From positions 18,466 through 82,465 of the forward strand of contig JBLWYD010000012.1 of NCBI GenBank assembly GCA_048267165.1: a DNA stretch of 64,000 bases, given 5' to 3'. How positions within the stretch are numbered: position 1 is the first letter of the stretch; each line of letters starts with the position of its first letter. Source of the stretch: Bacteroidota bacterium. GTDB lineage: Bacteria > Bacteroidota > Ignavibacteria > Kapaibacteriales > UBA2268. The position numbers and the translations under genes are program-made. The notes below the pieces were generated by a model. The model saw only the letters and a program-made list of their open reading frames with translations. It was not told the DNA's origin and made no database searches. Of this stretch, positions 18,448 through 62,743 are shown piece by piece.

Positions 18448-19242
18448 ATGGAAATACTAGGGTATTTTATGGCGTTAGTAATAGGAACTTCTCTTGGCCT
18501 AATAGGCGGAGGGGGCTCAATACTTGCTGTGCCAGTACTAGCATATCTATTCTCATTGAATGAAACTTATGCAACTTCATACTCATTATTCGTAGTTGGT
18601 GCATCTTCTTTAGTAGGTGGACTAAGGCAAGGTAAGAACAATAATGTAGATTGGAGAACGGCTATAGTTTTCGGGCTTCCAGCGATAGTTGGTGTGTGGA
18701 TAGTTAGGCATTATATAGTACCAGCTTTACCAGAAGAGTTGTTCAGTATTGATACTTTTGTATTCACCCGCAGGATGATGATGTTCGGAGTATTCTCTGT
18801 TCTGATGGTATGGGCAGCTTACTCAATGCTTTCCAATAAAGAGAGTAAAGGCGGCACGGGTGAAGTGAATTACAATTACCCATTGATAATAGCAGAAGGT
18901 TTGGTAGTAGGTGGAATAACAGGTTTCGTTGGAGCTGGCGGTGGATTTCTTATAATACCCGCACTAGTAGTCCTAGCAAATCTGGAAATCAAAAAAGCCA
19001 TTGGGACTTCGTTGATAATCATAGCCTTGAAATCATTACTAGGGTTTTTCTTGAGCGATGCCCTAACTATGGATATAGATTGGACTTTTTTATTAGTATT
19101 TACGTCTATAGCAATAGCAGGAATTTTCCTAGGAGTTTCACTTGGTAAAGTGATTGATGGTACGAAATTGAAAAAAGGATTTGGCTATTTCATAATAGTA
19201 ATGGCCATATTTATATTCCTAATGGAATTTATAATAAGATAA
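18448..19242 (+). CDS. Sulfite exporter TauE/SafE family
   Basis: LGLIGGGGSILAVP, GFVGAGGGFLIIPAL, AIGTSL.II. Confidence 0.93.
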   Translation: MEILGYFMALVIGTSLGLIGGGGSILAVPVLAYLFSLNETYATSYSLFVVGASSLVGGLRQGKNNNVDWRTAIVFGLPAIVGVWIVRHYIVPALPEELFSIDTFVFTRRMMMFGVFSVLMVWAAYSMLSNKESKGGTGEVNYNYPLIIAEGLVVGGITGFVGAGGGFLIIPALVVLANLEIKKAIGTSLIIIALKSLLGFFLSDALTMDIDWTFLLVFTSIAIAGIFLGVSLGKVIDGTKLKKGFGYFIIVMAIFIFLMEFIIR

Positions 19243-42729: not shown

Positions 42730-45700
42730 TTACCAGCTACCACCAAACTTCAATTTCCCTTCCCAATGAATTTGATTCTCATCAGTTTTCACTGTTTCGG
42801 GTGAATTTACATAAGTAAAGTTAAGCAAGATATTCAGCCAATCTTCTTCTGATAGATTAAAAAAGGCATCGAGTGGTATCTCTACTTCTAGTCTAGAACC
42901 ACTGATATCATTAACATTACCACCGAATGACCAACGAGCACCACCGACTATATCACCACCGATTTTTACCCGCGCATCTTCGAAGTTTTCATCGAAATCT
43001 ATCTGGGCACTAAGTCCTAATTTCCCTAACTCTTGCGCTATTTGCCGAGTGATAATATCTGAAGCAATAGTACTTTGTAGATTAATCTCTTGTCCACTCC
43101 CATTACTAGTACTAGTTTGGTCAGAAGTTCTTCCAGTCAAAAGTAGTGAAATAATATCTGAAAGTTTCTTTTCTTTATCACCAATACCAGTTTCACCACC
43201 AACTTCATATTCGAAACGAAGGTCTGGATTCTCCTTAGTGCCAGTAACAAATATCTCAACTTTATACTTTTTATAATCAGCAGTAGTCCCTTCATAAGTT
43301 GCAGTCAAATCAAGTGTCGGGTTAGATATATTTCCCGTAGGAAAGTTTATATCTCCACCAATGTCGAACGTTTTGAAGAATGAAAGCTTACTACCTTCTT
43401 TAAGGATTATACGCCCATACAGCTTAGCTTCTTTGCTGTTTCTATTTTTTACATATCGAATATTACGTAGATTCGTAGGTGTTCCAACAATAACACTTGT
43501 ACTTAAGAATTGGTTGATTTGCATATCAATAAGAGTACGTCCTCTGAACTCTACGTCCAAATCCATATTCAACAAATCAAATAAGCTCTCTGATACTTCC
43601 TGAGCCTTCTTAGTTTTCTTTACTTTTACGCTATCTTCTCTACCATAGGTAGCTGTTACCAAATCACCAGTTCTAGTATATATGAACTTGGAGCGAACGA
43701 GTTGAATCTCTTCTTCATCAGGCATTTTCAAATCAGCTGATTCGATTGCCACATAACCATCTAGATTTGGCTTTTCGAAACTACCGTAAAAACGCAGTGA
43801 GTCCTTTTCAGTTGAAATAATTAGTCTTCCGAATAAATCACTTTTTGCTTTCTGAGTCTCATCGTGCATAACCAAGAATCTCTTAGTTTTCATTCCAATA
43901 TCAAGGCCGGCTATATTCATTTCTTCTAATGTAATATTACCAGTTACATCTGCTACACCTCCACTTAGGTCATCAGGTAAGTTGTATAGCTTCACATCTT
44001 CTAGGAATACTTTATTTTCTTTGAGTATCAACCCGCCTTTCGCTCTGTAGCCAACATTAGTAGCATCAACAAGGAAAGAAGCATTATCAAATCTTACAAT
44101 ACCATTGAAATTTAGACCATCAGGTAAAAGTCCACCCACCAATAGCTTCCCTTTACCAATTCCTTTCAGATAGCTTATGGAAGGTACAAATGGACTGATA
44201 ATAGATAAAGGTAGTGAATCTATCACGAACGACATATCGGCTTGTTTAGTAGTAGAAAATCGATTCTCAACTTCCGTCAACGACAAATCGATAGGGAAAG
44301 AGTTAATTTCACCCTTTACTAAATCAGGCATATTTGATTTATCAGAATAATGATTGATTACTAAACCACCTTTTATTTGCTTGTCAGCATATTCCAAGTC
44401 TGCATTTATATCCCCCACCATCTGCTCATTGACACTTATATCATTAGAACGAACGAAAAACTTCATTTTAGGATTATCAACATCGCCATTCAAAACGACA
44501 TTCATCGAATCTACTTTTCCGTTTAACTGGTCGAATGCTTTTCTCTTTTGTCTAGGAATAAATGATTTGATTGCTTGAATATCTAGATTATTCAAGGTTA
44601 GATTGAAATTGTTGAATCGATTATTATCAGCATTGTACTCACCACCTAGATTGATTCTCTCTTTAGTATTGGGGTTAGTTAACTCCATAGAATTAATAGT
44701 AAACCCACCATCTACAAATTTGGCATCTATAGGTTCACTCAGAGATAAGTTATATTCATTTTCATAGGACAAATCTAGTCGTGAAAATCCTAGTTGAATA
44801 CCACCCGGAATAATAGTAGTATTACCATCGAATGCAATATCTATTTGATTATTGAAATCTGTCTGCCCTGTAAATTTGAATTCCTTCCCATCATATTCCA
44901 GATTAATAGCAGGGTAATTCAAAGTATTTTCATTAATAGAAATTTTCTCATTTGCTTTAGCTTTCAAATTGAAATCAGAGAACACTGCAGAAGAATCCAC
45001 TAGCTTCATATAGAGTCCACCTTCGGCAGACAAACCACGAGAGGTTACAGTCTGTTTACCAGAATTATAATACAAATCTTCTATTTTCAGATTATTTATA
45101 TATAAGGAACTTTCATTATCTTTTGCAAAAATATGGAAGTTTAACTCGGTGTTCATACGTAAGTTGACACCGTCCATAAAAGCAGTTAAGAATGAGAAAT
45201 CAGAAATATTGATTTTCAAATTAGCATCGATTGGGTCAAAAGAACCCATCTTTTCTACTTCCATTAGCACTAGCTTATTAACTAGCTCTTGATCGCTAGG
45301 GATTAGTTTATTCACCTCTTGTGCTATAAAATTATAGAGAGATGAACTCTGGTTTTGAAGCGAAGTCAGAGTATTTTCGAAGTTATAGTTACCTTGAAGT
45401 AATATACTACCGAAGTCAGAATCGAATTCGATTTTCCTATCTTCATTACTGAATTTATCGACTTTCAGTTTGAAACCAAATGGAAAGAAAGCTCTATCAT
45501 CGAATACTATATCCCTAATATCGGTATCGAATTCACCTGTAATATTATTTAACTCTAGCCCTTTACCTTGTAATTTGGAACTACCAGATAGATAGCTAGG
45601 CATTTTTTCATTTTCTAGTAATTGCTTTAGATTAACAGCATTGAAATCTACATTCATATTATAAAGTGCATTATCTTTATCGCTAATATCGAGTAAGCCA

Positions 45701-47289
45701 TGTCCTTTTATATAGCTTTTCTCTGGTACACCAATCGAATACCCCATAGTGGAAGATCCAAATTCTGCATATAGAGTATCTAACCTTACTAGACTGAAAT
45801 TTTCCGATTTCATATCAATTTTCAGTCTAGACATTTTGTATTTATCTATTGAGTTAGCCCCACCATCAAATGTTAGATTGATCGTCGGGTTATCACCTGT
45901 GATGCCTAATAGCTCCGTGTGGAGTTCGCCATTTATGTTAGTTGTAATTGTATTCGGGTATAGCTTATTAGCATTTAGTGCGCTAACTTTACCATCGTAT
46001 TTCACGTCTAATTTATTACTATTTTGCACAACTAACTCACCATTCAAACTACCAACACCTGAGTTTGCATCTAAATCGAAGTGCAGATTGTTAGGTGTGC
46101 CTTTCATTCTCATCAGATTGAAATTTGCAAATATGAAATCAGGCATATTGTTATTTTTCATATTCAAGAATTTGACTACATCATTATAAGCAACGTGAGA
46201 ATTATTAGCCGTCAAATCGAAATAGATTTTATCAGAGTTTGTAACATCTTTTATTCTACCTTTTATCTTCACATTTGAGTTTGGTAACTTCAATTTGAAT
46301 TCTTGGATATTAATATCGTCCATATTCCCATCAGCTTTCAAAGTCATATCGTGTGTACCTCTGAAATCGACTGGTGAATTAAGAAGAGTCATTAGCTCTG
46401 GAATATTCAAGCTTTCTGCTTTAGCATCGAGCATTATCTCGGCTTTTTCGAAATCCCCATCATTGATACCACCGAATATATCTATCCCAGTTATTTTAGC
46501 ATCGAGGTTGAGCTTAGTTTTTCCTGATGCATATTCCAAATCAGTAATACTAACGAAATTGCTATCTATAGCAAATTCTAAGTGCGTTGGAGTTAGTCTC
46601 TTTTTCATTACAGATTCGTAGAACGATAAATTATCAAGACTAGCTTTTAGTTGCTTCTTAGTTGGTCGAATAAATAGTGAACTACTTAAATTTAAATTTT
46701 CAAGATGAAGATTACTTGTATTGAATCCAGATGCGTCTTTATTCGCAGCATAAGGGTCATACATTCTGAAGTCAGCATCTACTAGTCTCAGCTTACTGAA
46801 AAGTATTTTTGTATCTGGTGGAGCGGTAGTGTCCGTCGAAGGTTTTGGTATTTGTGATACATTCCATATTCCTTCCTCGTTACGTAGCATATTGATTTTT
46901 GCGTTATGCAGAACTAAATCATTTATGAATATTTTACCGTTGAGAATTGCTTCGAGGTTTACTAATGCATTAGCTTCTGGAATAATAGCAATAGTATCTT
47001 TATCATCCAAGACTAATGAAACCCCGAATAAATCGGCTGACTTCAAGCTAGTGAGAGTAAAGTCATCTACATTGACTTTCGCATTCAGGCTCTTATTAAT
47101 CTCATCTTCTGCAAAATCTAGTATTACAGTACGAACAGATTTGAATTGGAGAGATACGAATGCACCAGTAATAGTAAAGACAACAAACAGAAGTAAAAAC
47201 AAAACAAGACGCACTATCCACTTCCTAATCCGAGATGGTTTCTTTTGTGCTTCCGCTTTTACTTCCTCTATGTCTTTCTTCTTCTTCAA
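42730..47289 (-). CDS. tamB: TamB/AsmA-like translocation and assembly module protein
   Basis: N-terminal TM, long beta-taco repeats, C-terminal DUF490-like 'G.I.F.TG...NP.LD.TA...V.GT..NP.L.F'. Confidence 0.8.
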   Translation of the reverse strand: MKKKKDIEEVKAEAQKKPSRIRKWIVRLVLFLLLFVVFTITGAFVSLQFKSVRTVILDFAEDEINKSLNAKVNVDDFTLTSLKSADLFGVSLVLDDKDTIAIIPEANALVNLEAILNGKIFINDLVLHNAKINMLRNEEGIWNVSQIPKPSTDTTAPPDTKILFSKLRLVDADFRMYDPYAANKDASGFNTSNLHLENLNLSSSLFIRPTKKQLKASLDNLSFYESVMKKRLTPTHLEFAIDSNFVSITDLEYASGKTKLNLDAKITGIDIFGGINDGDFEKAEIMLDAKAESLNIPELMTLLNSPVDFRGTHDMTLKADGNMDDINIQEFKLKLPNSNVKIKGRIKDVTNSDKIYFDLTANNSHVAYNDVVKFLNMKNNNMPDFIFANFNLMRMKGTPNNLHFDLDANSGVGSLNGELVVQNSNKLDVKYDGKVSALNANKLYPNTITTNINGELHTELLGITGDNPTINLTFDGGANSIDKYKMSRLKIDMKSENFSLVRLDTLYAEFGSSTMGYSIGVPEKSYIKGHGLLDISDKDNALYNMNVDFNAVNLKQLLENEKMPSYLSGSSKLQGKGLELNNITGEFDTDIRDIVFDDRAFFPFGFKLKVDKFSNEDRKIEFDSDFGSILLQGNYNFENTLTSLQNQSSSLYNFIAQEVNKLIPSDQELVNKLVLMEVEKMGSFDPIDANLKINISDFSFLTAFMDGVNLRMNTELNFHIFAKDNESSLYINNLKIEDLYYNSGKQTVTSRGLSAEGGLYMKLVDSSAVFSDFNLKAKANEKISINENTLNYPAINLEYDGKEFKFTGQTDFNNQIDIAFDGNTTIIPGGIQLGFSRLDLSYENEYNLSLSEPIDAKFVDGGFTINSMELTNPNTKERINLGGEYNADNNRFNNFNLTLNNLDIQAIKSFIPRQKRKAFDQLNGKVDSMNVVLNGDVDNPKMKFFVRSNDISVNEQMVGDINADLEYADKQIKGGLVINHYSDKSNMPDLVKGEINSFPIDLSLTEVENRFSTTKQADMSFVIDSLPLSIISPFVPSISYLKGIGKGKLLVGGLLPDGLNFNGIVRFDNASFLVDATNVGYRAKGGLILKENKVFLEDVKLYNLPDDLSGGVADVTGNITLEEMNIAGLDIGMKTKRFLVMHDETQKAKSDLFGRLIISTEKDSLRFYGSFEKPNLDGYVAIESADLKMPDEEEIQLVRSKFIYTRTGDLVTATYGREDSVKVKKTKKAQEVSESLFDLLNMDLDVEFRGRTLIDMQINQFLSTSVIVGTPTNLRNIRYVKNRNSKEAKLYGRIILKEGSKLSFFKTFDIGGDINFPTGNISNPTLDLTATYEGTTADYKKYKVEIFVTGTKENPDLRFEYEVGGETGIGDKEKKLSDIISLLLTGRTSDQTSTSNGSGQEINLQSTIASDIITRQIAQELGKLGLSAQIDFDENFEDARVKIGGDIVGGARWSFGGNVNDISGSRLEVEIPLDAFFNLSEEDWLNILLNFTYVNSPETVKTDENQIHWEGKLKFGGSW

Positions 47290-52567: not shown

Positions 52568-54130
52568 ATGGAAAATAACAGAGAAATCGAACGAAAGATT
52601 GAGCTGCTCCAAAAGAAAAAGGACGAAGCCCAACAGGGTGGCGGTAAAGATAGAATAGAAGCACAGCACAAAAGAGGCAAACTAACAGCCAGAGAGAGAC
52701 TAGATTTACTACTGGATAAAGGTAGTTTCACCGAAATGGATATGCTAGCTCATCACCACTCAACTGCTTTCGGATTAGACAAAACTGTTGTTCTAGGAGA
52801 TGGAGTAGTAACAGGTTATGGTAATGTTAATAGTAAAAGTATTTTCACATTCTCACAGGACTTCACAGTACTTGGTGGTTCATTAGCTGAGCAACACGGT
52901 AGAAAAATAGTGAAAATAATGGAAATGGCATTGAAAAATGGAATGCCAGTCATCGGTTTGAACGATTCGGGTGGAGCTCGTGTACAAGAGGGAGTTATCT
53001 CGCTTGGTGCTTATGCAGATATTTTCTTACAAAATACAATCGCTTCGGGAGTAATCCCACAAATCTCTGTTATTATGGGTCCTTGTGCCGGTGGAGCAGT
53101 TTATTCTCCAGCTATAACAGACTTCGTTATTATGGTCAAAGATACATCATATATGTTTGTAACTGGCCCCAAAGTAGTGAAGACAGTAACTCACGAAGAT
53201 TTGACACCTGAGAATTTAGGTGGCGCTTCTATTCACAGCACTAAAAGTGGGGTTGCTCACTTCGTCGCTGACAATGATTTAGAAGCAATCGAAATAGTAA
53301 AAAATCTATTAGAATATATACCTAGTAATAATGCAGAAGCTGCCCCTTTCAAAGAGACAGCCGACCCAATCGATAGAGAAAGTCCAGATCTGAACTATAT
53401 AGTACCTGCAAATCCGAATCAACCTTATGATATCAAAAATGTTATAAGAGAAGTCGCAGATGATGGTGAATTCCTAGAAGTTCATCAAGACTATGCAGAA
53501 AATATAGTAGTAGGTTTCATTCACTTAGGTGGCATGTCTATAGGCGTTGTGGCTAATCAGCCAATGGTATTAGCGGGAGTTCTAGACAATGAAGCTTCTC
53601 GTAAGGCAGCTAGATTCATCAGATTTTGCGATGCATTCAATATCCCATTATTAACATTCGAAGATGTACCAGGATTCATGCCTGGTAGAGAGCAGGAATG
53701 GGGCGGAATTATATCTAATGGAGCAAAATTACTTTACGCATACTGCGAAGCGACAGTACCGAAAATCACTGTAATAACAAGAAAAGCTTATGGCGGTGCT
53801 TACGACGTAATGAGTAGCAAGCATATCAGAGGTGATTTCAACTTTGCTTGGCCTACAGCAGAGATTGCAGTTATGGGTGCAAAAGGTGCAATTGAGATTA
53901 TATTCAAGAAGCAAGTCGATGAAGCCGATAACAAAGCTGAGAAGATGATTGAGTTAGAAGATGAGTATAATGAAAAGTTTGCTAATCCATATATAGCAGC
54001 TTCTTACGGCTATATCGATGATATTTTCGAGCCCAAATTTACTAGACAACGATTAATTGATTCATTCAATTTATTGAAAAACAAAGTGGATAAGAATCCA
54101 CCGAAGAAACATGGTAATATACCTTTATAG
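52568..54130 (+). CDS. pccB: Acyl-CoA (propionyl-CoA) carboxylase carboxyltransferase beta subunit
   Basis: GKLTARER, QDFTV.GGSL, DSGGARVQEG, GPCAGGAVYSPA.TD, DVPGF.PG, RKAYGGAY, KKHGNIPL. Confidence 0.93.
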   Translation: MENNREIERKIELLQKKKDEAQQGGGKDRIEAQHKRGKLTARERLDLLLDKGSFTEMDMLAHHHSTAFGLDKTVVLGDGVVTGYGNVNSKSIFTFSQDFTVLGGSLAEQHGRKIVKIMEMALKNGMPVIGLNDSGGARVQEGVISLGAYADIFLQNTIASGVIPQISVIMGPCAGGAVYSPAITDFVIMVKDTSYMFVTGPKVVKTVTHEDLTPENLGGASIHSTKSGVAHFVADNDLEAIEIVKNLLEYIPSNNAEAAPFKETADPIDRESPDLNYIVPANPNQPYDIKNVIREVADDGEFLEVHQDYAENIVVGFIHLGGMSIGVVANQPMVLAGVLDNEASRKAARFIRFCDAFNIPLLTFEDVPGFMPGREQEWGGIISNGAKLLYAYCEATVPKITVITRKAYGGAYDVMSSKHIRGDFNFAWPTAEIAVMGAKGAIEIIFKKQVDEADNKAEKMIELEDEYNEKFANPYIAASYGYIDDIFEPKFTRQRLIDSFNLLKNKVDKNPPKKHGNIPL

Positions 54131-55064
54131 AATAATAGTTCTATTAATCTTGGCTTTATTGACTTCGTGTATAGAAGACCCAGTAAAGACAAGTATTGAT
54201 GATAATTACATTTCGTCCATTGCAAAGTCGGATTCATATCTTTTTGCGTCTGCTAGCAATGGACAAATTTTCAGGTCTTCCGATGGTGAAGACTGGAATG
54301 CTTTAGTACTTAATAACAGCATTTTGCTACTAGATATAGAAGCAACACCAGACGGTAGATTAGTAGCCAGCGGTGAAAATGGAGTTATTTTCGTAAGCAA
54401 TAATAATGGTGAGAACTGGAGCAAAAAAGCGACAGGAGTCTCATCATTCCTCAAAGACTTGGTAATCTATAATGATAGCACTTACTATGCCGGTGGCCGC
54501 TCTGGCACATTAATCAGAAGCACCGACTTCGGAGCAACTTGGGTAACTATACCCACACCATTCTCCACACAAATCTCAAAACTTTCCCTTATCAACAACA
54601 AGATTTACATCGGTTTAAGAACTAATACTGAAGGTTCCCCCCTACTTTACGAATACAGCATTGATGCAGATACAGTTACAAGTATAGATATAGAAATCAG
54701 CTCTTTCATTACCGACATAGCAGAAATCAATAGTGAGATTTATTTCACTGATTATTCTGGATGCTATAAGCTAATAGAAAATGCGGGTTACAGTAAAGAA
54801 TTAGTCTATAGTACTAGCAATGGATTCATCGCTCAGAAAATATTGGGCTATGGCGGTGAAATAGCATTAGTAGGACATAGCGGGTTTAACTTAGGTAAAG
54901 TAATAACTGGAATACCGAGTAATCCTCAAATAAAAGAATTCGAAGAAAGCATTTATTTTAATTCAGGCATAATTTTTTCTAATAAGTTAATTGCGTGCGG
55001 TGGCGACGAATTTGAGCTAGCTGTATTACAGAACTCAAATTGGAATATCATCAAGTTAAAATAG
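54111..55064 (+). CDS. YCF48/BNR (Asp-box) beta-propeller lipoprotein
   Basis: Lipobox LTSC; Asp-boxes SSDGEDW, SNNNGENW, STDFGATW. Confidence 0.8.
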   Translation: MVIYLYRIIVLLILALLTSCIEDPVKTSIDDNYISSIAKSDSYLFASASNGQIFRSSDGEDWNALVLNNSILLLDIEATPDGRLVASGENGVIFVSNNNGENWSKKATGVSSFLKDLVIYNDSTYYAGGRSGTLIRSTDFGATWVTIPTPFSTQISKLSLINNKIYIGLRTNTEGSPLLYEYSIDADTVTSIDIEISSFITDIAEINSEIYFTDYSGCYKLIENAGYSKELVYSTSNGFIAQKILGYGGEIALVGHSGFNLGKVITGIPSNPQIKEFEESIYFNSGIIFSNKLIACGGDEFELAVLQNSNWNIIKLK

Positions 55065-55108
55065 AGTTTAAAACAAGAAATAAAACAAAAATACTTCCGG
55101 AGTTTATT

Positions 55109-58100
55109 ATGAAACGAATAGCAATGCTTTGTGCAAGCATATTACTATTAGTATCATCTACCCTAATAGGGCAAATACCTAATAAAATTTCCTACCAAGG
55201 ATTACTCACAAACACAGCCCTAAAACCATTGGCTGACGGCGACTATAACATCGAGTTTAGGATGTATAGTGATGAAAGCAGTGGGCAGATTCTTTGGAAT
55301 GAGAAGCAAAGGCTAACTCTACAGAATGGAGTATTCAACGCTGTTTTGGGTGATGTAAACCCCATAAGCCTGAAGTTTAATCAACGTTATTGGCTTGGGA
55401 TAAAGTTAGAAAATGAGACCGAAATGACCCCGAGAATACCGATGGTGTCGGTACCCTATTCATTCTATGCTGGTTTGTCGGAAGGACTAGCTGAAGATGC
55501 GACGGGTGCTGTTTTATCTCTTAACGGTTTGGAGGGAGACGTCGAAATAGAAGGTGATAATGGAGTTACTGTTAGCAAAAGCGGTAATAAACTATTAATC
55601 AGCAATAAAGTAAGTGCTATTGAGACAATTGTATCTTCAAAAGCACAGCTAACAATAGATTTAAACGGAACTGAAGTTGACATAAACATTGCCCCAAAAA
55701 GTATATCTGACGAAGAAATATCGGACGTAAATTGGGAAACAATTACAGGAAAGCCAAACCTTTTTCAACCGGGTGGTTCAGCTGGTGGTGATTTGGTTGG
55801 TGATTATCCGAACCCTACTCTTTCGAGTAAAGGTGCTTCAACTGGTCAAGTATTAAAATGGAATGGAACGCAATGGGTAGCTGATGATGATATGGTTGGC
55901 AGCTTCGAGTTCACCGTTAACAGTCCACTAACAGGCGACGGCACCAAGATTAATCCGCTTTCAATAAACAAATCTTCGTCAAGCATAGATGGATATTTAA
56001 CTTCAAATGATTGGACAATCTTTAATAACAAGCTAGACAAAGTAACTACAGACGCTATAATACTAGGCGACGGTACAGTAACAAATCCACTTTCAATGGC
56101 GAAAGCGAATAGTAACAATAGTGGTTATTTGGATTCAGATGATTGGAAAAGATTTGATAGTAAGTTAGATGATATAATAACTACTGGTGCTATAATAGGT
56201 AAGGGAACAACCGCAAACCCACTGAGAATGAACAAAGCTACCAACTCGAATGATGGGTATTTGACATTCTCTGATTGGAATACATTTAATAGCAAATTAT
56301 CGACTGTTAATAGCGAACTTCCAATAATTGGAGACGGTTCAATAACTAAACCATTAACTATGGCAAAAGCTTCAGCAACTAAAGACGGTTACCTGTCGGC
56401 AACAGATTGGACGAAGTTCAATGCACCCAACACAGTGAGTGTAAATACACCACTAGTCGGTGACGGTAGCAGTGGAAACCCAATTACTCTTGGCAAAGCT
56501 AATGGAACTACAAGCGGCTTTTTGTCTTCTGCCGACTGGACGAAATTTAATAGTAAACTAGGGATATTAGTAAGTAACACTCCCCTTTCAGGCGAGGGTA
56601 CGTCAGCATCTCCATTGATGATTAGTCAAGCGAATAGCACGGCGAATGGATATTTAAGTTCTGGCGATTGGAATACGTTCAATAACAAATTATCGACTGT
56701 AGGTGTGAATGCTCCAATATCAGGATCAGGCACGAATCTTGATCCATTGACATTGGTAAGATCAAACGCATCAGTTGACGGTTATCTTGGTGCAACAGAC
56801 TGGGTAAAATTCGATAGTAAACTAGATGCAGTTGTGGCAACAGCACCTATAAATGGTCAGGGAACTACAGCTAGCCCTCTAACTTTATCACAAGCAAATT
56901 CCTCAACAGACGGATATTTATCTTCAGCAGATTGGACGAAATTCAATACTGCTGCAACAGTTTCCGTGTCTGCCCCAATAACTGGTGATGGCACTAGTGG
57001 CAGCCCACTTGCAATGTCATCAGCAAACACTACAGTTGATGGGTATTTGACATCTACAGACTGGAATTCATTTAATAATAAACTAAGCTTAGTCTCAGTT
57101 AATGGCCCACTAGTTGGGGACGGAACAAGTGCATCACCAATCACATTAGGAAGAGCTGATGCAACAACAAACGGATTCTTAGCTTCTTCTGATTGGAATA
57201 CATTTAATAATAAGCTAACTAACGTCTCTGCGAACGCACCGATGACTGGTAACGGTACGTCGGGGAATCCTCTTGTTCTTGTACAAGCGAACGGCACTAA
57301 CGACGGTTATCTTAGCTCAGCTGATTGGACGAAGTTCAACAACTCAGGAACAATCACAGCTTCTGCCCCACTTTCGGGGGATGGCTCAACTGGTAACCCA
57401 CTTGTAATAGCAATGGCTAATACAACAAACGATGGGTATTTAACTTCGACAGATTGGAATACGTTTAATAATAAGCTAACTAATGTCTCTGCATCTGCAC
57501 CAATGACTGGAAACGGGACTTCGGGTAATCCTCTAGTTCTTGCACAAGCGAACGGCTCTAACGACGGTTATCTTAGCTCTGCTGATTGGACGAAATTCAA
57601 TAATTCTGGGACTATCACAGCTTCTGCCCCACTTTCGGGTGATGGCTCGACTGGTGACCCACTTGTAATAGCGACTGCTAATACTACTACTGATGGATAT
57701 TTAACGGCTACTGATTGGAATTCATTTAACAATAAGCTAGGTTTAGTTTCTGTTAATGGCCCACTAGTTGGAGACGGAACAAGTTCATCACCAATCACAT
57801 TAGGAAGAGCTGATGCAACAACAAACGGATTCTTAGCTTCTTCAGATTGGAACACATTCAACAATAAGCTAACTAACGTCTCTGCATCTGCACCTATGAC
57901 TGGTAACGGGACTTCAGGGAATCCTTTAGCATTAGCACAAGCGAACGGTAGCAATGACGGTTATCTTAGCTCGGCTGATTGGACGAAGTTCAACAACTCT
58001 GGTACTATCACGGCTTCGGCTCCACTTTCGGGGGATGGCTCAACTGGTAGCCCACTTGTAATAGCGACTGCTACTACTACTGCTGATGGATATTTAACAT

Positions 58101-61100
58101 CTACCGATTGGAACACATTCAATAATAAGCTAACAAGCGTCTCTGCATCTGCACCTATGACTGGAAACGGGACTTCGGGTAATCCTCTTGTTCTTGCACA
58201 AGCAAACGCTAGTACGAACGGTTATCTTAGCTCAGCTGATTGGACGAAGTTCAACAACTCTGGTACTATCACGGCTTCTGCTCCACTATCGGGTGATGGC
58301 TCGACTGGTAGCCCACTTGTAATAGCAACGGCTAATACAACAAACGATGGATATTTAACTTCGACAGATTGGAATACATTTAATAATAAGCTAACTAACG
58401 TCTCTGCAAACGCTCCGATGACTGGAAACGGTACTTCAGGCAACCCTCTTGTTCTTGCACAAGCGAACGGCTCTAACGACGGTTATCTTAGCTCAGCCGA
58501 TTGGACGAAGTTCAATAACTCTGGGACTATCACAGCTTCGGCTCCACTTTCGGGGGATGGCTCAACTGGTAGCCCACTTGTAATAGCAACAGCTAATACA
58601 ACAAACGATGGGTATTTAACTTCGACAGATTGGAATACATTTAACAGTAAGCTTGATGATGTTGCTGTTGACGGCACTAGCGTTATAACTGGGGACGGTA
58701 CTGTTGCTACTCCACTTACAATCGATTCAGCTACCTCGGCTCGTTCAGGGTATTTAACTTCGTATGACTGGGATAGATTTAACACTATGGCTTCTTCGAC
58801 AGTAACGGTTAGCTCACCACTATCAGGAATCGGAACTTCTGGTGATCCAATCGCTATTGCAACGGCTAATACAACAAACGATGGATACTTAACAGCTACT
58901 GATTGGAACACATTTAACAGTAAGCTTGATGATGTTGCTGTTGACGGCACTAGCGTTATTACTGGGGACGGTACTGTTGCTACTCCACTTACAATCGATT
59001 CAGCTACCTCGGCTCGTTCAGGGTATTTAACTTCTTACGATTGGGATAGATTTAACACGATGGCTTCTTCGACTGTTACAGTTAGCTCACCGCTATCGGG
59101 AATCGGAACATCTGGTGATCCAATCGCTATCGCAACTGCTAATACAACAAACGATGGATATTTAACTTCTTCTGATTGGAACACATTCAACAGTAAGCTA
59201 AGCGATGTCGCTGTTGACGGCACTAGCGTTATAACTGGGGACGGTACTGTTGCTACTCCACTTACAATCGATTCAGCTACCTCGGCTCGTTCAGGGTATT
59301 TAACTTCGTATGACTGGGATAGATTTAACACTATGGCTTCTTCGACAGTAACGGTTAGCTCACCACTATCAGGAATCGGAACTTCTGGTGATCCAATCGC
59401 TATTGCAACGGCTAATACAACAAACGATGGATACTTAACAGCTACTGATTGGAACACATTTAACAGTAAGCTTGATGATGTTGCTGTTGACGGCACTAGC
59501 GTTATTACTGGGGACGGTACTGTTGCTACTCCACTTACAATCGATTCAGCTACCTCGGCTCGTTCAGGGTATTTAACTTCTTACGATTGGGATAGATTTA
59601 ACACTATGGCTTCTTCGACTGTGACTGTTAGCTCACCGCTATCGGGAATCGGAACATCTGGTGATCCAATCGCTATCGCAACTGCTAACACAACAAACGA
59701 TGGATATTTAACTTCTTCTGATTGGAACACGTTCAATAGCAAACTATCGACTGTATCTGTGGAATTGAACAACCCAATAAAAGGTGATGGTACAACGGCT
59801 GATAAACTACGTATGGATTCGGCTACTTCAACTCGCTCGGGTTATTTAACTTTAACTGATTGGAATAAATTTAATAGTAGTTCGATTGATTCAATTAAAG
59901 TTTCTACCCCTTTAACTGGCAATGGTATTACAAATAGTATTTCTATTCCTAAAGCAACTAACTCTGTCCATGGATATCTTAGTTCAGGCGATTGGAATAC
60001 GTTCAACAACAAATTATCCGAAGTTGTTATAGCTAATAATATTCCCCTTTCGGGTAGAGGCTTAAGCGGTGATTCATTGACTATTGCGACTGCAAACACA
60101 ACTACTGACGGATATTTAACTGCAGCTAATTGGAATACATTCAACAACAAACTCTCAAATGTAGCAGTAAATGGGCCTATTACAGGTAATGGAACTATTG
60201 GAAATGAATTAACAATTGGAAGAGCTGATGGTACAACTAATGGCTACTTAGGTTCTACCGATTGGACTACTTTCAATAATAAATTAACTAATATTACTTT
60301 AGCTGGTGGAACACCACTTAGTGGTAGTGGAACGACCGGTAGTCCTTTGACTATTTCGACTGCAAATACAACTACTGACGGATTCTTAACAGCAGCCAAT
60401 TGGAACACATTCAATAGCAAACTTTCGACTGTTAACGCTACTTCTCCTATTACAGGAAATGGAACTTCTGGTAATCCTCTGAAAATGGATTCGGCAACTG
60501 CTTCTAATGGCGGTTATCTTTCTGCTAATGACTGGTCTAGATTCAACAGCAACTCGACTGCAACGGTAATTACAACTTTACCTGTTCGTGGTGATGGTTC
60601 TACAAGTGATAGAATAAGAATGGATCAAGCAAATACAACTACTGATGGTTATTTAACATCTTCAAATTGGAATACATTTAACGGGAAACTTTCATCCGTG
60701 TCTATTGCTACGGGGACTCCTATTACTGGTAATGGTACATCAACTACTCCATTAGTATTAGCAAAATCAAGTGGAAGTGTGAATGGTTATCTGAGTTCGG
60801 GCGATTGGACTACTTTCAACAACAAATTATCAGCTGTAAGCGCTACTGCTCCAATTACTGGCTCTGGTACTTCGGGTAGTCCACTGAAAATGGACTCTGT
60901 TGGTTTTTCCAATCCTGGGTATATGACTACAGATGATTATATAACTTTCTATAGTAAATTGAGTTCAGTTTATACTCAAATCGGAGGTGTTATTACGGGT
61001 AATGGTACTTCGGGTGATAGACTAAAAATTGCCCAAGCTAATGCTACTACAGACGGTTATTTATCTTCTACAGATTGGAATACTTTTAATAACAAACTTT

Positions 61101-62743
61101 CAGCTATGAATGTAGTTACAGAATTACCAGTGAAAGGAAATGGAACTTCTGGCAATCCTTTGAAAATGGATTCGGCAACTGCTTCAAATGCTGGTTACCT
61201 AACAGCAAATGATTGGACTAGATTCAATAACAACTCATCTTCAACTGTATATACTACACTCCCTGTACGTGGTGATGGTACGTCTGGTGATAGAATAAGA
61301 ATGGATGCAGCTGGAACAAGTACCAATGGTTACTTAACTATGGGAGATTGGAATAATTTCAATAATAAGCTAAGTGCTTTGCATATTAGTACTGTATTTA
61401 CTGGTAGTGGAGTTAACTCAGGTAGTCCATTGGATATTGAATATGCTTCGCCTACTCAAAAAGGTATCGTAAGTAAAAACGCTCAAACTTTCGGTGGTGA
61501 AAAAACCTTCGCTGATGGTGTGAGTATTCAAGATAGAAATCCACTTAGATTATATGATTCAGGCAATACTAATTATATAGCTCTTAGATCGGCTGCTTCA
61601 CTTAGTGCAAACTACACTCTTACTCTACCCAATGGTGTAGGTACTAGTGGTCAATTCTTAACTACTGACGGTAGTGGAAATATGTCTTGGACTACTTCGA
61701 CTGCTGGGACTGGGTATATTACTTATGGTACTGATAGTACACAACAAACGGCATTAATGTCTGAGTATATTTTCGATGTATCGAATGAGACTGTTGCTTC
61801 TGGCGGAGCATTAGGTGCAAAGATCACAGCTAAAGGTGGTACGAGTACTGGTTCGGCAACAGGGTTGACAGTACAAGCAACAGTGAATGGTGGTTCGAGC
61901 GATGCCGTTTCAATAAAAGCTGTAGCAACTAACAGCGGCACCGGAAAAGAAATCGCTCTGGATGCCGAAGGTGTTATCACAACTGACAATTCTTACGCTA
62001 TCAACGATACTACTGTGCTAAATAATAAGAACCAAAGTGTGTTCGTTGGTAATTCGGCTGGTAGTAGTATTACTAATGGAACAAGCAATGTAGTAGTTGG
62101 ATTTGAGTCTATGAAATCATCGACTACTGCTAGCAACAACGTAGTAGTAGGTAATAAAACGGCAACTAGTTTGGCTGGTAATTCGAACGTACTAGTAGGT
62201 AATAGTATAACTATTGGCAATAGCGCAGCTGATAGCAATAACGTAGCAATAGGTAAAGGGTCGAGAATTAATAGTGGCAATGCATTCTCATCTGCAATTG
62301 GTTCATTAGCACAAGTGGATGCAAACCACACAGTTGTATTAGGTGCTATAGACGGTGTGAACGGAGCTGATAGTTCTGCGAATGTGGGAATTGGTACACA
62401 AGCACCAGATGCTAGGTTACAAGTGATTTCGACTGACGCTAGTACTCACGCTCTTAAAGTTGGGGGTTCCAACTCAGGTGAATATGGTACAATGAATTTT
62501 GCTTCAATTTGGAAGGGGACAAGCACTACTCCACCTAAAGGATATTCTATCTACTATTACAATAATAACCAAACAAACCTTATTTCTTTACCTGCCGGTG
62601 AAGATGGTCAAGTTTGCTTTGTCATGAATAAGTCTGGACTCAAAATCACTATTGACTCTGATCCTCAAGACTATGAGATAGGTAATGGAGAGTTACAAAT
62701 GTTTCTATTCTTTGGTAGTTATTGGACAAGAGTTACTATATAA
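55109..62743 (+). CDS. Giant secreted repeat protein, phage-tail-fibre / trimeric fibre adhesin-like
   Basis: Signal peptide from ATG 55109; N-domain 'IP..ISYQG.L...LW.E.Q..NG.F...LG'; ~41 repeats 'P..G.G....PL....A.....GYL...DW..FN'; shaft motifs 'YTLTLP...G..GQ.L.TDGSG..SW' and 'NVGIGT..P...L.V'; YadA-like 'N..VG' rungs. Confidence 0.85.
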   Translation: MKRIAMLCASILLLVSSTLIGQIPNKISYQGLLTNTALKPLADGDYNIEFRMYSDESSGQILWNEKQRLTLQNGVFNAVLGDVNPISLKFNQRYWLGIKLENETEMTPRIPMVSVPYSFYAGLSEGLAEDATGAVLSLNGLEGDVEIEGDNGVTVSKSGNKLLISNKVSAIETIVSSKAQLTIDLNGTEVDINIAPKSISDEEISDVNWETITGKPNLFQPGGSAGGDLVGDYPNPTLSSKGASTGQVLKWNGTQWVADDDMVGSFEFTVNSPLTGDGTKINPLSINKSSSSIDGYLTSNDWTIFNNKLDKVTTDAIILGDGTVTNPLSMAKANSNNSGYLDSDDWKRFDSKLDDIITTGAIIGKGTTANPLRMNKATNSNDGYLTFSDWNTFNSKLSTVNSELPIIGDGSITKPLTMAKASATKDGYLSATDWTKFNAPNTVSVNTPLVGDGSSGNPITLGKANGTTSGFLSSADWTKFNSKLGILVSNTPLSGEGTSASPLMISQANSTANGYLSSGDWNTFNNKLSTVGVNAPISGSGTNLDPLTLVRSNASVDGYLGATDWVKFDSKLDAVVATAPINGQGTTASPLTLSQANSSTDGYLSSADWTKFNTAATVSVSAPITGDGTSGSPLAMSSANTTVDGYLTSTDWNSFNNKLSLVSVNGPLVGDGTSASPITLGRADATTNGFLASSDWNTFNNKLTNVSANAPMTGNGTSGNPLVLVQANGTNDGYLSSADWTKFNNSGTITASAPLSGDGSTGNPLVIAMANTTNDGYLTSTDWNTFNNKLTNVSASAPMTGNGTSGNPLVLAQANGSNDGYLSSADWTKFNNSGTITASAPLSGDGSTGDPLVIATANTTTDGYLTATDWNSFNNKLGLVSVNGPLVGDGTSSSPITLGRADATTNGFLASSDWNTFNNKLTNVSASAPMTGNGTSGNPLALAQANGSNDGYLSSADWTKFNNSGTITASAPLSGDGSTGSPLVIATATTTADGYLTSTDWNTFNNKLTSVSASAPMTGNGTSGNPLVLAQANASTNGYLSSADWTKFNNSGTITASAPLSGDGSTGSPLVIATANTTNDGYLTSTDWNTFNNKLTNVSANAPMTGNGTSGNPLVLAQANGSNDGYLSSADWTKFNNSGTITASAPLSGDGSTGSPLVIATANTTNDGYLTSTDWNTFNSKLDDVAVDGTSVITGDGTVATPLTIDSATSARSGYLTSYDWDRFNTMASSTVTVSSPLSGIGTSGDPIAIATANTTNDGYLTATDWNTFNSKLDDVAVDGTSVITGDGTVATPLTIDSATSARSGYLTSYDWDRFNTMASSTVTVSSPLSGIGTSGDPIAIATANTTNDGYLTSSDWNTFNSKLSDVAVDGTSVITGDGTVATPLTIDSATSARSGYLTSYDWDRFNTMASSTVTVSSPLSGIGTSGDPIAIATANTTNDGYLTATDWNTFNSKLDDVAVDGTSVITGDGTVATPLTIDSATSARSGYLTSYDWDRFNTMASSTVTVSSPLSGIGTSGDPIAIATANTTNDGYLTSSDWNTFNSKLSTVSVELNNPIKGDGTTADKLRMDSATSTRSGYLTLTDWNKFNSSSIDSIKVSTPLTGNGITNSISIPKATNSVHGYLSSGDWNTFNNKLSEVVIANNIPLSGRGLSGDSLTIATANTTTDGYLTAANWNTFNNKLSNVAVNGPITGNGTIGNELTIGRADGTTNGYLGSTDWTTFNNKLTNITLAGGTPLSGSGTTGSPLTISTANTTTDGFLTAANWNTFNSKLSTVNATSPITGNGTSGNPLKMDSATASNGGYLSANDWSRFNSNSTATVITTLPVRGDGSTSDRIRMDQANTTTDGYLTSSNWNTFNGKLSSVSIATGTPITGNGTSTTPLVLAKSSGSVNGYLSSGDWTTFNNKLSAVSATAPITGSGTSGSPLKMDSVGFSNPGYMTTDDYITFYSKLSSVYTQIGGVITGNGTSGDRLKIAQANATTDGYLSSTDWNTFNNKLSAMNVVTELPVKGNGTSGNPLKMDSATASNAGYLTANDWTRFNNNSSSTVYTTLPVRGDGTSGDRIRMDAAGTSTNGYLTMGDWNNFNNKLSALHISTVFTGSGVNSGSPLDIEYASPTQKGIVSKNAQTFGGEKTFADGVSIQDRNPLRLYDSGNTNYIALRSAASLSANYTLTLPNGVGTSGQFLTTDGSGNMSWTTSTAGTGYITYGTDSTQQTALMSEYIFDVSNETVASGGALGAKITAKGGTSTGSATGLTVQATVNGGSSDAVSIKAVATNSGTGKEIALDAEGVITTDNSYAINDTTVLNNKNQSVFVGNSAGSSITNGTSNVVVGFESMKSSTTASNNVVVGNKTATSLAGNSNVLVGNSITIGNSAADSNNVAIGKGSRINSGNAFSSAIGSLAQVDANHTVVLGAIDGVNGADSSANVGIGTQAPDARLQVISTDASTHALKVGGSNSGEYGTMNFASIWKGTSTTPPKGYSIYYYNNNQTNLISLPAGEDGQVCFVMNKSGLKITIDSDPQDYEIGNGELQMFLFFGSYWTRVTI
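57200..59745 (+). repeat. Intragenic tandem DNA repeats: 261-bp units, then 4 x 273-bp units forming a 546-bp dimer (boundaries approximate)
   Basis: cttagctc.gctgattgg at 57311 and 57572 (261 apart); cgttat(a/t)actggggacgg at 58681, 58954, 59227 and 59500 (273 apart) with alternating variants. Confidence 0.9.

Follow-up and report, generated by a model that had tools for sequence, protein, structure and literature searches.

How does a giant fibre-like protein reach the surface of a bacterial cell, and stay there, if none of the recognized outer-membrane export signals can be found in it? The question is raised by a gene in a 64,000-nucleotide (nt) stretch of DNA (hereafter, the window; positions 18,466–82,465 of contig JBLWYD010000012.1, assembly GCA_048267165.1) from a bacterium of the phylum Bacteroidota. 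The source genome is a metagenome-assembled genome (MAG) of 162 contigs, and its host is an uncultured soil-type bacterium; its nearest relatives in public data are MAGs that go by the names Candidatus Kapaibacterium, Ignavibacteriota, and Chlorobiota. The fibre gene lies at window positions 55109–62743 on the plus strand and, read from its first ATG at 55109, encodes 2544 amino acids (aa) plus a stop codon within an uninterrupted open frame (55040–62743, +). The original prediction, which had been made from the sequence by eye, drew a single fibre gene across 54111–62743. Its end and its length of about 2540 aa hold and its start does not: the span contains two plus-strand genes in different frames, of which the fibre gene is the second, and 54111 begins the gene for a 317-aa BNR/Asp-box lipoprotein (54111–55064, +; delimited from its open reading frame [ORF] and Pfam matches). 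The claimed gap of 44 nt between the lipoprotein stop codon and the fibre ATG is correct.

We consider it fairly probable that the protein is a chromosomally encoded, Sec-exported fibre that carries an N-terminal domain (N-domain) like that of the mosaic adhesive trimer (MAT) proteins of Bdellovibrio, ends in something other than a Peptidase_S74 (S74) domain, and depends on an accessory protein for export. Judged from its modules, the fibre plan is that of a MAT: the base is of a cellular type, and the shaft and tip modules attached to it are of phage type. A likeness to MAT proteins and phage fibres was part of the original prediction, and it is borne out by matches to the family model NF053851 (Bdello_MAT_N), by a paralog that ends in S74, and by a distal shaft that matches phage proteins. 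For MATs, too, the available text of the MAT study (PMC10769870) leaves open how they reach the surface and what the N-domain binds, and the accessible part of a 2026 review adds nothing to this.

The first 21 residues (55109–55171, +) form a predicted Sec signal peptide, read from the sequence as MKR, a hydrophobic run, and IG/QIP (the slash marks the likely cleavage site), and the mature fibre probably starts at Gln22. A mature N-terminal Gln would fit the ‘Q-rule’ of Bacteroidota signal-peptidase substrates. The motif ISYQG..LW.E.Q..G.F..LG follows; both signal and motif are thus present as originally described. They lead into the conserved N-domain (aa 22 to about 122; 55172–55474, +), which was delimited from alignments of paralogs, an AlphaFold2 (AF2) model, and the NF053851 match. 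In the model, the domain is a six-strand beta-sandwich with a predicted local distance difference test (pLDDT) score above 90 over model residues 1–95. Its conserved residues are P, Y-Q-G, W-x-E, and G-x-F. A Foldseek search with this model against the PDB returned nothing at E ≤ 1e-3, and a wide VIA fold search (best Z 7.2) returned only generic immunoglobulin (Ig)/fibronectin type III-like sandwiches; a type IX secretion system (T9SS) C-terminal domain (CTD), 8qb1 (Z 6.5), is among them and does not stand out, and no conclusion is drawn from it. A tblastn search with the N-domain against 50,697 phage records gave zero matches. Between the N-domain and the shaft lies a neck (aa 123–267; 55475–55909, +) with the collar-like motif ‘GQVLKWNGTQWV’, which the fibre shares with only one paralog.

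The original prediction had proposed a hidden Markov model of the N-domain as a means of listing paralogs. Six proteins of the source genome, the target included, share the domain, and a profile of the six N-domains retrieved 66,123 cluster representatives at E ≤ 1e-3 (31,048 at E ≤ 1e-10) from 1.84 billion. Nearly all of the 150 relatives listed have the N-domain starting near residue 20–30. Of 151 genomes sampled from the phylum, 52 have it, at 1–13 copies each. Some relatives repeat the domain (six matched stretches in the 916-aa P0003, three each in P0004 and P0008), so it is not always a single N-terminal base. The sole family model that recurs among members is NF053851, which matched 31 of 32 N-domain members at E ≤ 0.01 (best 1.1e-11); the whole target scored 22.4 bits and its N-domain alone 29.3 bits, the six paralogs scoring 24.6–32.9 bits or less. 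By these matches, the target N-domain is distantly related to that of the Bdellovibrio MATs. The family as a whole is very large, uncharacterized, and without a Pfam model, and the target is an ordinary member of it.

Outside the N-domain, the six paralogs (415–2544 aa) differ from one another. The C6 paralog (657 aa) ends in the only S74 domain of the genome; the C1b paralog contains nine YadA_head stretches; and four of the six, the target among them, have a loosely similar small C-terminal beta motif. The closest paralog, C9 (1674 aa), has 55 per cent identity to the target in the N-domain and has the neck, the repeat unit, and the tip in common with it. The set therefore combines a constant base with mosaic tips, both with and without S74, which is one of the features that mark the MAT family.

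The greater part of the protein is a shaft of 41 tandem units of 43–46 aa (55910–61372, +), as delimited by a pattern count and Tandem Repeats Finder, and the count originally given (about 41 repeats of about 43–47 aa) was accurate. The pattern G[YF][LM]x3-4[DN][WY]xxF matched 41 times between aa 295 and 2084 and 0 times in 1000 shuffles; its strict form, G[YF]LxxxDWxxF or the N variant, fits 40 of the 41 units. Units are spaced by 44 (17 times), 46 (10 times), 43 (7 times), or 45 aa (6 times), and the 44-aa consensus reads V....P..GdGTsg.PL.ia.An.t.dGYLtS.DWntFNnKL. Part of the array is recent, because super-repeats of 261 and 273 nt are still 86–91 per cent identical at the DNA level (Tandem Repeats Finder). 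The number of units varies, since 23 units are counted in the 1814-aa ortholog of the congener G137 (614-kb contig), whose N-domain and tip are like those of the target. In four public MAGs and in a second congener, G081, the orthologous contigs all break within the repeat array. A query of four units matched one record, an uncultured 636-kb phage (LR756504.1) in which a 1157-aa ORF contains the unit once.

Beyond the array, the modules have phage relatives. A collar module (aa 2144–2197; ‘..LRLYD..YTLTLPNGVGTSGQFLTTDGSGNMSWTT’; 61538–61699, +) recurs in giant fibre proteins, being matched repeatedly in P0153–P0180, and is 48 per cent identical to an S74 protein of phage DSL-LC04. A tblastn search with the C-terminal 471 aa matched a putative tail fibre of Pelagibacter phage HTVC111P (30 per cent identity over 57 per cent of that stretch); in the protein atlas, phage clusters (0.94) and YadA_head (0.88) are the neighbours of the final 215 aa. 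Within this part lies a beta-helix or rung region with periodic N.V.VG (aa 2308–2425; 62030–62383, +), which was delimited from the sequence and its phage matches and resembles the tail spike family phrog_4636 (E 0.003). The YadA-like rungs that had been claimed are visible by eye in this region, though Pfam YadA_head was unscored in the target at E ≤ 0.1. The loop NVGIGTQAPDARL (62381–62419, +) then resembles, by eye, the capping motif V-G-G/N-pi-x-x-P-x-x-x-L given for MAT and S74 proteins in the available text of PMC10769870.

The small C-terminal tip that had been noted is an approximately 105-aa, all-beta domain (aa 2438–2544; 62420–62740, +) at the place where an S74 chaperone would sit. 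Its only homologs are in the C9 paralog, the G137 ortholog, and one Kapaibacterium fragment (P0181), and a search of a 5.8-billion-protein set with the ‘longer’ length option returned one match. The AF2 model of the tip has nine strands (pLDDT 64 overall and 72–83 over the last 50 aa), and its best Foldseek matches are the Ig-like domain of StcE (E 1e-4), 6o38, and phage tailspike domains.

None of the known means of crossing or spanning the outer membrane was detected in the fibre. With Pfam and NCBIfam models at E ≤ 0.1, neither a T9SS CTD of type A (TIGR04183/PF18962) or type B (PF13585), nor an autotransporter barrel or YadA_anchor, nor Peptidase_S74 was scored, and the whole fibre had 0 matches to PDB sequences at E ≤ 1. 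The earlier statement that no recognizable outer-membrane export signal is present thus stands. A C-terminus scoring as a CTD or barrel had been named in advance as grounds for giving up the idea of an unusual export route; neither scored, and neither is listed among the Foldseek matches of the tip. The same CTD models score clearly on small neighbours of the fibre's paralogs, and the host does use T9SS, as had been supposed: SprA is present, and all 150 of the TIGR04183 candidates scored (of 262) lie above the cut-off. As far as defining domains in its sequence allow a judgement, the fibre is neither a T9SS cargo nor a trimeric autotransporter nor an S74 fibre.

A candidate for the missing step comes from the neighbours of the other fibres. 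Five of the six paralogs abut a gene for a small secreted protein, the target being the exception. These proteins, which we call adaptors, share a module of about 55 aa directly after the signal peptide (consensus ..SV..sGG....G...L..T.GQ..IG.......GFW), for which Pfam and NCBIfam hold no model and whose conserved residues are S-x-G-G, T-x-G-Q, and G-F-W. Their C-terminus is a T9SS type A CTD in three of them and IPTL-CTERM in the other two. The smallest, of 171 aa, consists of a signal peptide, the module, and a T9SS CTD, and nothing more. The five adaptor genes lie outside the window, at C6:18094–18609 (+), C1:100600–101190 (−), C5:106609–107295 (+), C1:122250–122936 (+), and C9:20440–21363 (−) of the source genome (G000). 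The two IPTL-CTERM (PF18203) adaptors (L003:787–1470 on G000:C5 and L005:787–1470 on G000:C1) are 84 per cent identical to each other and end in IPTLSEWALILLG..., which shows that the module also occurs with a further sorting signal, itself poorly understood. In the literature collection searched, only one paper mentions IPTL-CTERM.

The association between module and N-domain extends beyond the source genome. In a six-frame translation of that genome, the module profile found five copies, each abutting one of the five paralog fibre genes. The module occurs in 19 of the 151 sampled genomes; each of the 19 belongs to the 52 that have the N-domain, and the 99 that lack the N-domain also lack the module. 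Across 18 other genomes, 35 of 41 module matches lie less than 900 nt from an N-domain fibre frame. Specifically, 20 of 23 matches in five genomes are adjacent to a fibre (19 of the 20 on the same strand; 10 of the 13 that were outside the profile-building set), as are 15 of 18 in thirteen further genomes (all on the same strand). Module genes may be either upstream or downstream of the fibre gene. Among the 35 database relatives of the module that were listed, 34 have 155–467 aa and one has 835 aa; 33 contain Pfam domains, nearly all of them of the C-terminal sorting type (PF18962, PF18203, and PF13860), and the sources name these proteins solely by their sorting signal. The C9 adaptor is near atlas clusters that combine Cohesin with a T9SS CTD (0.92), which we treat as a lead only, as Pfam Cohesin is unscored in it. 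An hhalign comparison of the module with the N-domain revealed no similarity.

We hypothesize that N-domain fibres without a CTD ride on an adaptor, in which the module would grip the N-domain and the CTD or IPTL-CTERM would serve as both export ticket and covalent surface anchor. This is a tentative idea, which we regard as possible rather than probable. T9SS, according to the available text of PMC9251779, handles proteins that are folded and proteins of very large size, and it requires the CTD to be folded; it is therefore physically plausible that an adaptor could lend its CTD to a fibre that has none. For the target, the candidate adaptor in trans would be the 307-aa CTD protein of the C9 paralog. 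The C9-type locus of G137 (L093, G137:C2:251287–255067), syntenic to that of the C9 paralog, has kept an AraC gene, a 306-aa CTD adaptor, and a 668-aa OmpA-family gene, with no fibre gene between the AraC regulator and the adaptor; the sole fibre of the C9/target type in that genome is the target's ortholog. At the C9 locus of the source genome, the fibre and adaptor genes are followed on the same strand by a gene for a 665-aa protein with a C-terminal OmpA domain and an N-terminal part that has no assignment (L047:445–2439, −; G000:C9:18441–20438), with 42 per cent identity to its counterpart in G137, and this protein may serve the same system as part of the envelope.

If the fibre is of MAT type and is exported through an accessory protein, we propose that it works as follows. 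The signal peptide would carry the chain into the periplasm, where three chains would join as a long thin fibre; trimerization is assumed because the solved MAT fibres and S74 fibres are trimers. Targeting to the outer membrane would be supplied by an accessory protein, usually the small neighbour with the module of about 55 aa and a T9SS CTD or IPTL-CTERM; for the target itself, this protein may be the adaptor of the closest paralog, acting in trans, or the lipoprotein encoded upstream of the fibre. The beta-sandwich N-domain would remain at the cell and dock the base of the fibre, presumably to the adaptor. The 41 shaft units would act as a length-variable spacer of about 0.1 micrometre, a rough extrapolation scaled from the 142–150 Å given for residues 662–1031 of Bd2133 in the available structural description. 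The small C-terminal beta domain would be the distal, ligand-binding tip of what we infer, by analogy, to be a surface-exposed adhesin.

Several observations weigh against this interpretation. At 22–29 bits, the target lies far under the curated 60-bit cut-off of NF053851, and its match spans only positions 2–78 of the 162 in the model; we therefore do not place the target in the Bdellovibrio MAT subfamily. The 41 units have no match in Pfam or in PDB sequences, their link to phages is the single record LR756504.1, and the count of 41 could be an assembly estimate, the source being a 162-contig MAG. The PHROG matches, obtained with the whole protein and with six pieces of it, are all weak (E ≥ 0.002), and the fold matches of the tip are leads only because its model is of low confidence. 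No copy of the module is found near the target or its G081 ortholog, nor beside its G137 ortholog, and an adaptor adjoins only 20 of the 52 fibres in five other genomes, so an adaptor is not a universal requirement. The module profile was in part built from loci that had been chosen for holding fibres, and related genomes are non-independent samples.

Two alternatives to export by an adaptor deserve more than a brief mention. The first is that the module proteins are assembly chaperones, or factors specific to the tip, and that the fibres leave the cell by vesicles or lysis. Phage tail-fibre chaperone genes adjoin their fibre genes, as module genes do on either side of theirs, and a chaperone would be consistent with the minority of fibres in the five genomes that have an adaptor and with the persistence of the G137 adaptor where no fibre stands beside it. 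We nevertheless think this explanation unlikely. What is conserved in the partner is matched to a family in which only the N-domain, and not the tip, is conserved, the make-up of the 171-aa partner suits export and surface fixation, and the listed relatives of the module are small proteins, nearly all with C-terminal domains of the sorting type.

The second alternative, which we regard as improbable, follows the original prediction: the N-domain would be the export or anchor signal of an uncharacterized outer-membrane pathway, and the BNR lipoprotein its dedicated partner. The lipoprotein has the lipobox LLTS/C (the slash precedes the lipidated Cys) and matches to BNR/Asp-box and Ycf48-like propellers; its Pfam matches to DUF6242 (30.9 bits) and PSII_BNR (29.1 bits) are both just above the cut-offs, and weak BNR matches accompany them. 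Its gene is on the same strand as that of the fibre and only those 44 nt upstream, and the adjacency is kept in two congeners, G081 (88 per cent identity) and G137 (43 per cent identity), though not in G045. A lipid-anchored protein could, moreover, substitute for the adaptor that only the target among the paralogs lacks. The sequence I-E-D-P after the lipobox Cys contains an acidic pair, in presumed resemblance to the surface-lipoprotein export signal of Bacteroidota. The adjacency in the four closest MAGs says little, because the entire 10-kb upstream region is syntenic there. In a genome of the same family, the nearest homolog of the lipoprotein (25 per cent identity) is on a different contig from the sole fibre, and no BNR lipoprotein is found beside the other five paralogs; the only other match to it in the source genome is inside an unrelated 2669-aa ORF. 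Nor does anything connect the 66,123-member N-domain family with BNR proteins. The lipoprotein is thus a weak candidate for a partner, its adjacency being confined to the genus.

It is very unlikely that the fibre is an ordinary T9SS cargo whose tip is a divergent CTD. Such a reading draws on a host with SprA and at least 150 CTD proteins and on a tip that is a small beta domain of about the size of a CTD. Neither type of CTD model scored in it, however, and the tip lacks the usual CTD ending that is present in the small neighbours of the paralogs; its Foldseek matches are to tailspike-type and Ig-like domains, with no CTD listed, and its position is occupied by S74 in one paralog and in many relatives. 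A prophage tail-fibre remnant without a cellular role is scarcely credible despite the phage relatives of the shaft and distal modules, given a frame intact for 2544 codons, a signal peptide, an N-domain found in 0 of the 50,697 phage records, a locus conserved in five related genomes, and flanks without phage structural genes.

These flanks were surveyed over 37.3–63.7 kb of the window. The 12 flanking ORFs are housekeeping genes (among them genes for pyruvate kinase, MscS, RsmH, and a response regulator), and none of them matched a phage structural family, in agreement with the earlier observation that phage genes are absent nearby. Immediately upstream, a carboxyltransferase gene (52568–54130) is overlapped at its 3' end by the first 20 nt of the lipoprotein gene. 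The search for related loci used a single protein as the query and hence reaches close relatives only; the locus is kept in the five related genomes mentioned above. A promoter and terminator scan gave nothing usable, promoter-like sites being fewer than in shuffles. No expression data for the fibre were found and no RNA runs are listed among the sequencing runs, of which one DNA run contained 5 per cent of the words searched.

Two further observations concern other ORFs of the window. A 1519-aa ORF at 42730–47289 (−) is conserved in four related MAGs; its sole match is an N-terminal one to DUF748, at 33.7 bits and so below the cut-off of 50. Several ORFs of 88–155 aa on the minus strand (56857–62331) are antisense to the repeat array and recur in related loci; they are most simply explained as shadows of the repetitive coding strand rather than as genes.

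MAT-type fibres have so far been understood only in Bdellovibrio. The locus described here places the MAT building plan in a different phylum and at an extreme length, reached through a new shaft unit, and makes the fibre a candidate determinant of the attachment of Kapabacteria to particles or other cells. The module adaptors, for their part, are a testable candidate for the export or anchoring step that is missing from the family, and the target, with no adaptor adjacent to it, offers a natural test of whether they act in trans. If N-domain fibres do ride on an adaptor, this would be a hitchhiking use of type IX secretion and would answer what MAT-type N-domains bind. The literature listings, as far as they are accessible, hold no published link of T9SS to tail-fibre-like proteins, hitchhiking export, or adaptor pairing, and a listing on Kapabacteria, with the opening parts of its abstracts, holds no information on their lifestyle.

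Among known systems, YadA-type trimeric autotransporters resemble the target in being long and repetitive and in a rung-like N.V.VG periodicity of the distal part, and one paralog has true YadA_head repeats. The target differs from them in having no YadA_anchor beta-barrel and in that its conserved end is the N-terminal rather than the C-terminal one. SprB of Flavobacterium johnsoniae, given as a T9SS-secreted protein of 6497 aa in the available text of PMC9251779, is likewise a giant repetitive protein of a T9SS-bearing member of the Bacteroidota, the surface location of the target being our inference; SprB, which illustrates the ability of T9SS to carry very large folded proteins, has its own C-terminal T9SS signal, whereas the target has none. 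With phage fibres and tailspikes that carry S74 (K1F endosialidase, the T5 L-shaped fibre, and the HTVC111P fibre), the target shares a distal shaft that is homologous in the case of HTVC111P, the collar module of the DSL-LC04 S74 protein, and one shaft unit of a jumbo-phage ORF. Unlike them, it has no S74, a Sec signal and a cell-type N-domain take the place of the virion attachment domain, and its gene is in a chromosomal context of housekeeping genes.

The closest counterparts are the non-S74 MATs such as Bd2133 (Caulton et al. 2024). Bdellovibrio bacteriovorus has 21 MATs, which mix S74 and non-S74 ends and in which a conserved domain of about 130 aa, rich in beta structure, directly follows the signal peptide; the PDB contains no homologue of this domain, whose presumed role is to bind a surface element (PMC10769870, available text). 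The target differs from these proteins in several respects. Its N-domain is only distantly related (22–29 against 60 bits), its host belongs to the Bacteroidota (Kapabacteria) and not to the Bdellovibrionota, and a predatory habit of that host is unsupported by evidence. At 2544 aa, against about 1000 aa, it is 2.5 times the usual length; its shaft repeats 41 times a 44-aa unit for which no family model exists; its tip is so far restricted to Kapabacteria; and its relatives pair with adaptors bearing T9SS or IPTL tags, which the available text of the MAT paper does not mention. Supplementary Tables 3 and 4 of PMC10769870 list MAT-like proteins from other bacteria, which may have a bearing on the novelty of this branch. 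In common with the MATs, the target has a signal peptide followed by a beta-rich N-domain without a PDB homologue, a long body with a variable C-terminal tip, phage-like modules, a capping-type motif (VGxG..P...L), and membership of a paralogous family with both S74 and non-S74 ends. The target is set apart by a new 44-aa shaft unit in 41 copies, a lineage-restricted tip, and a family context of adaptors with sorting signals.

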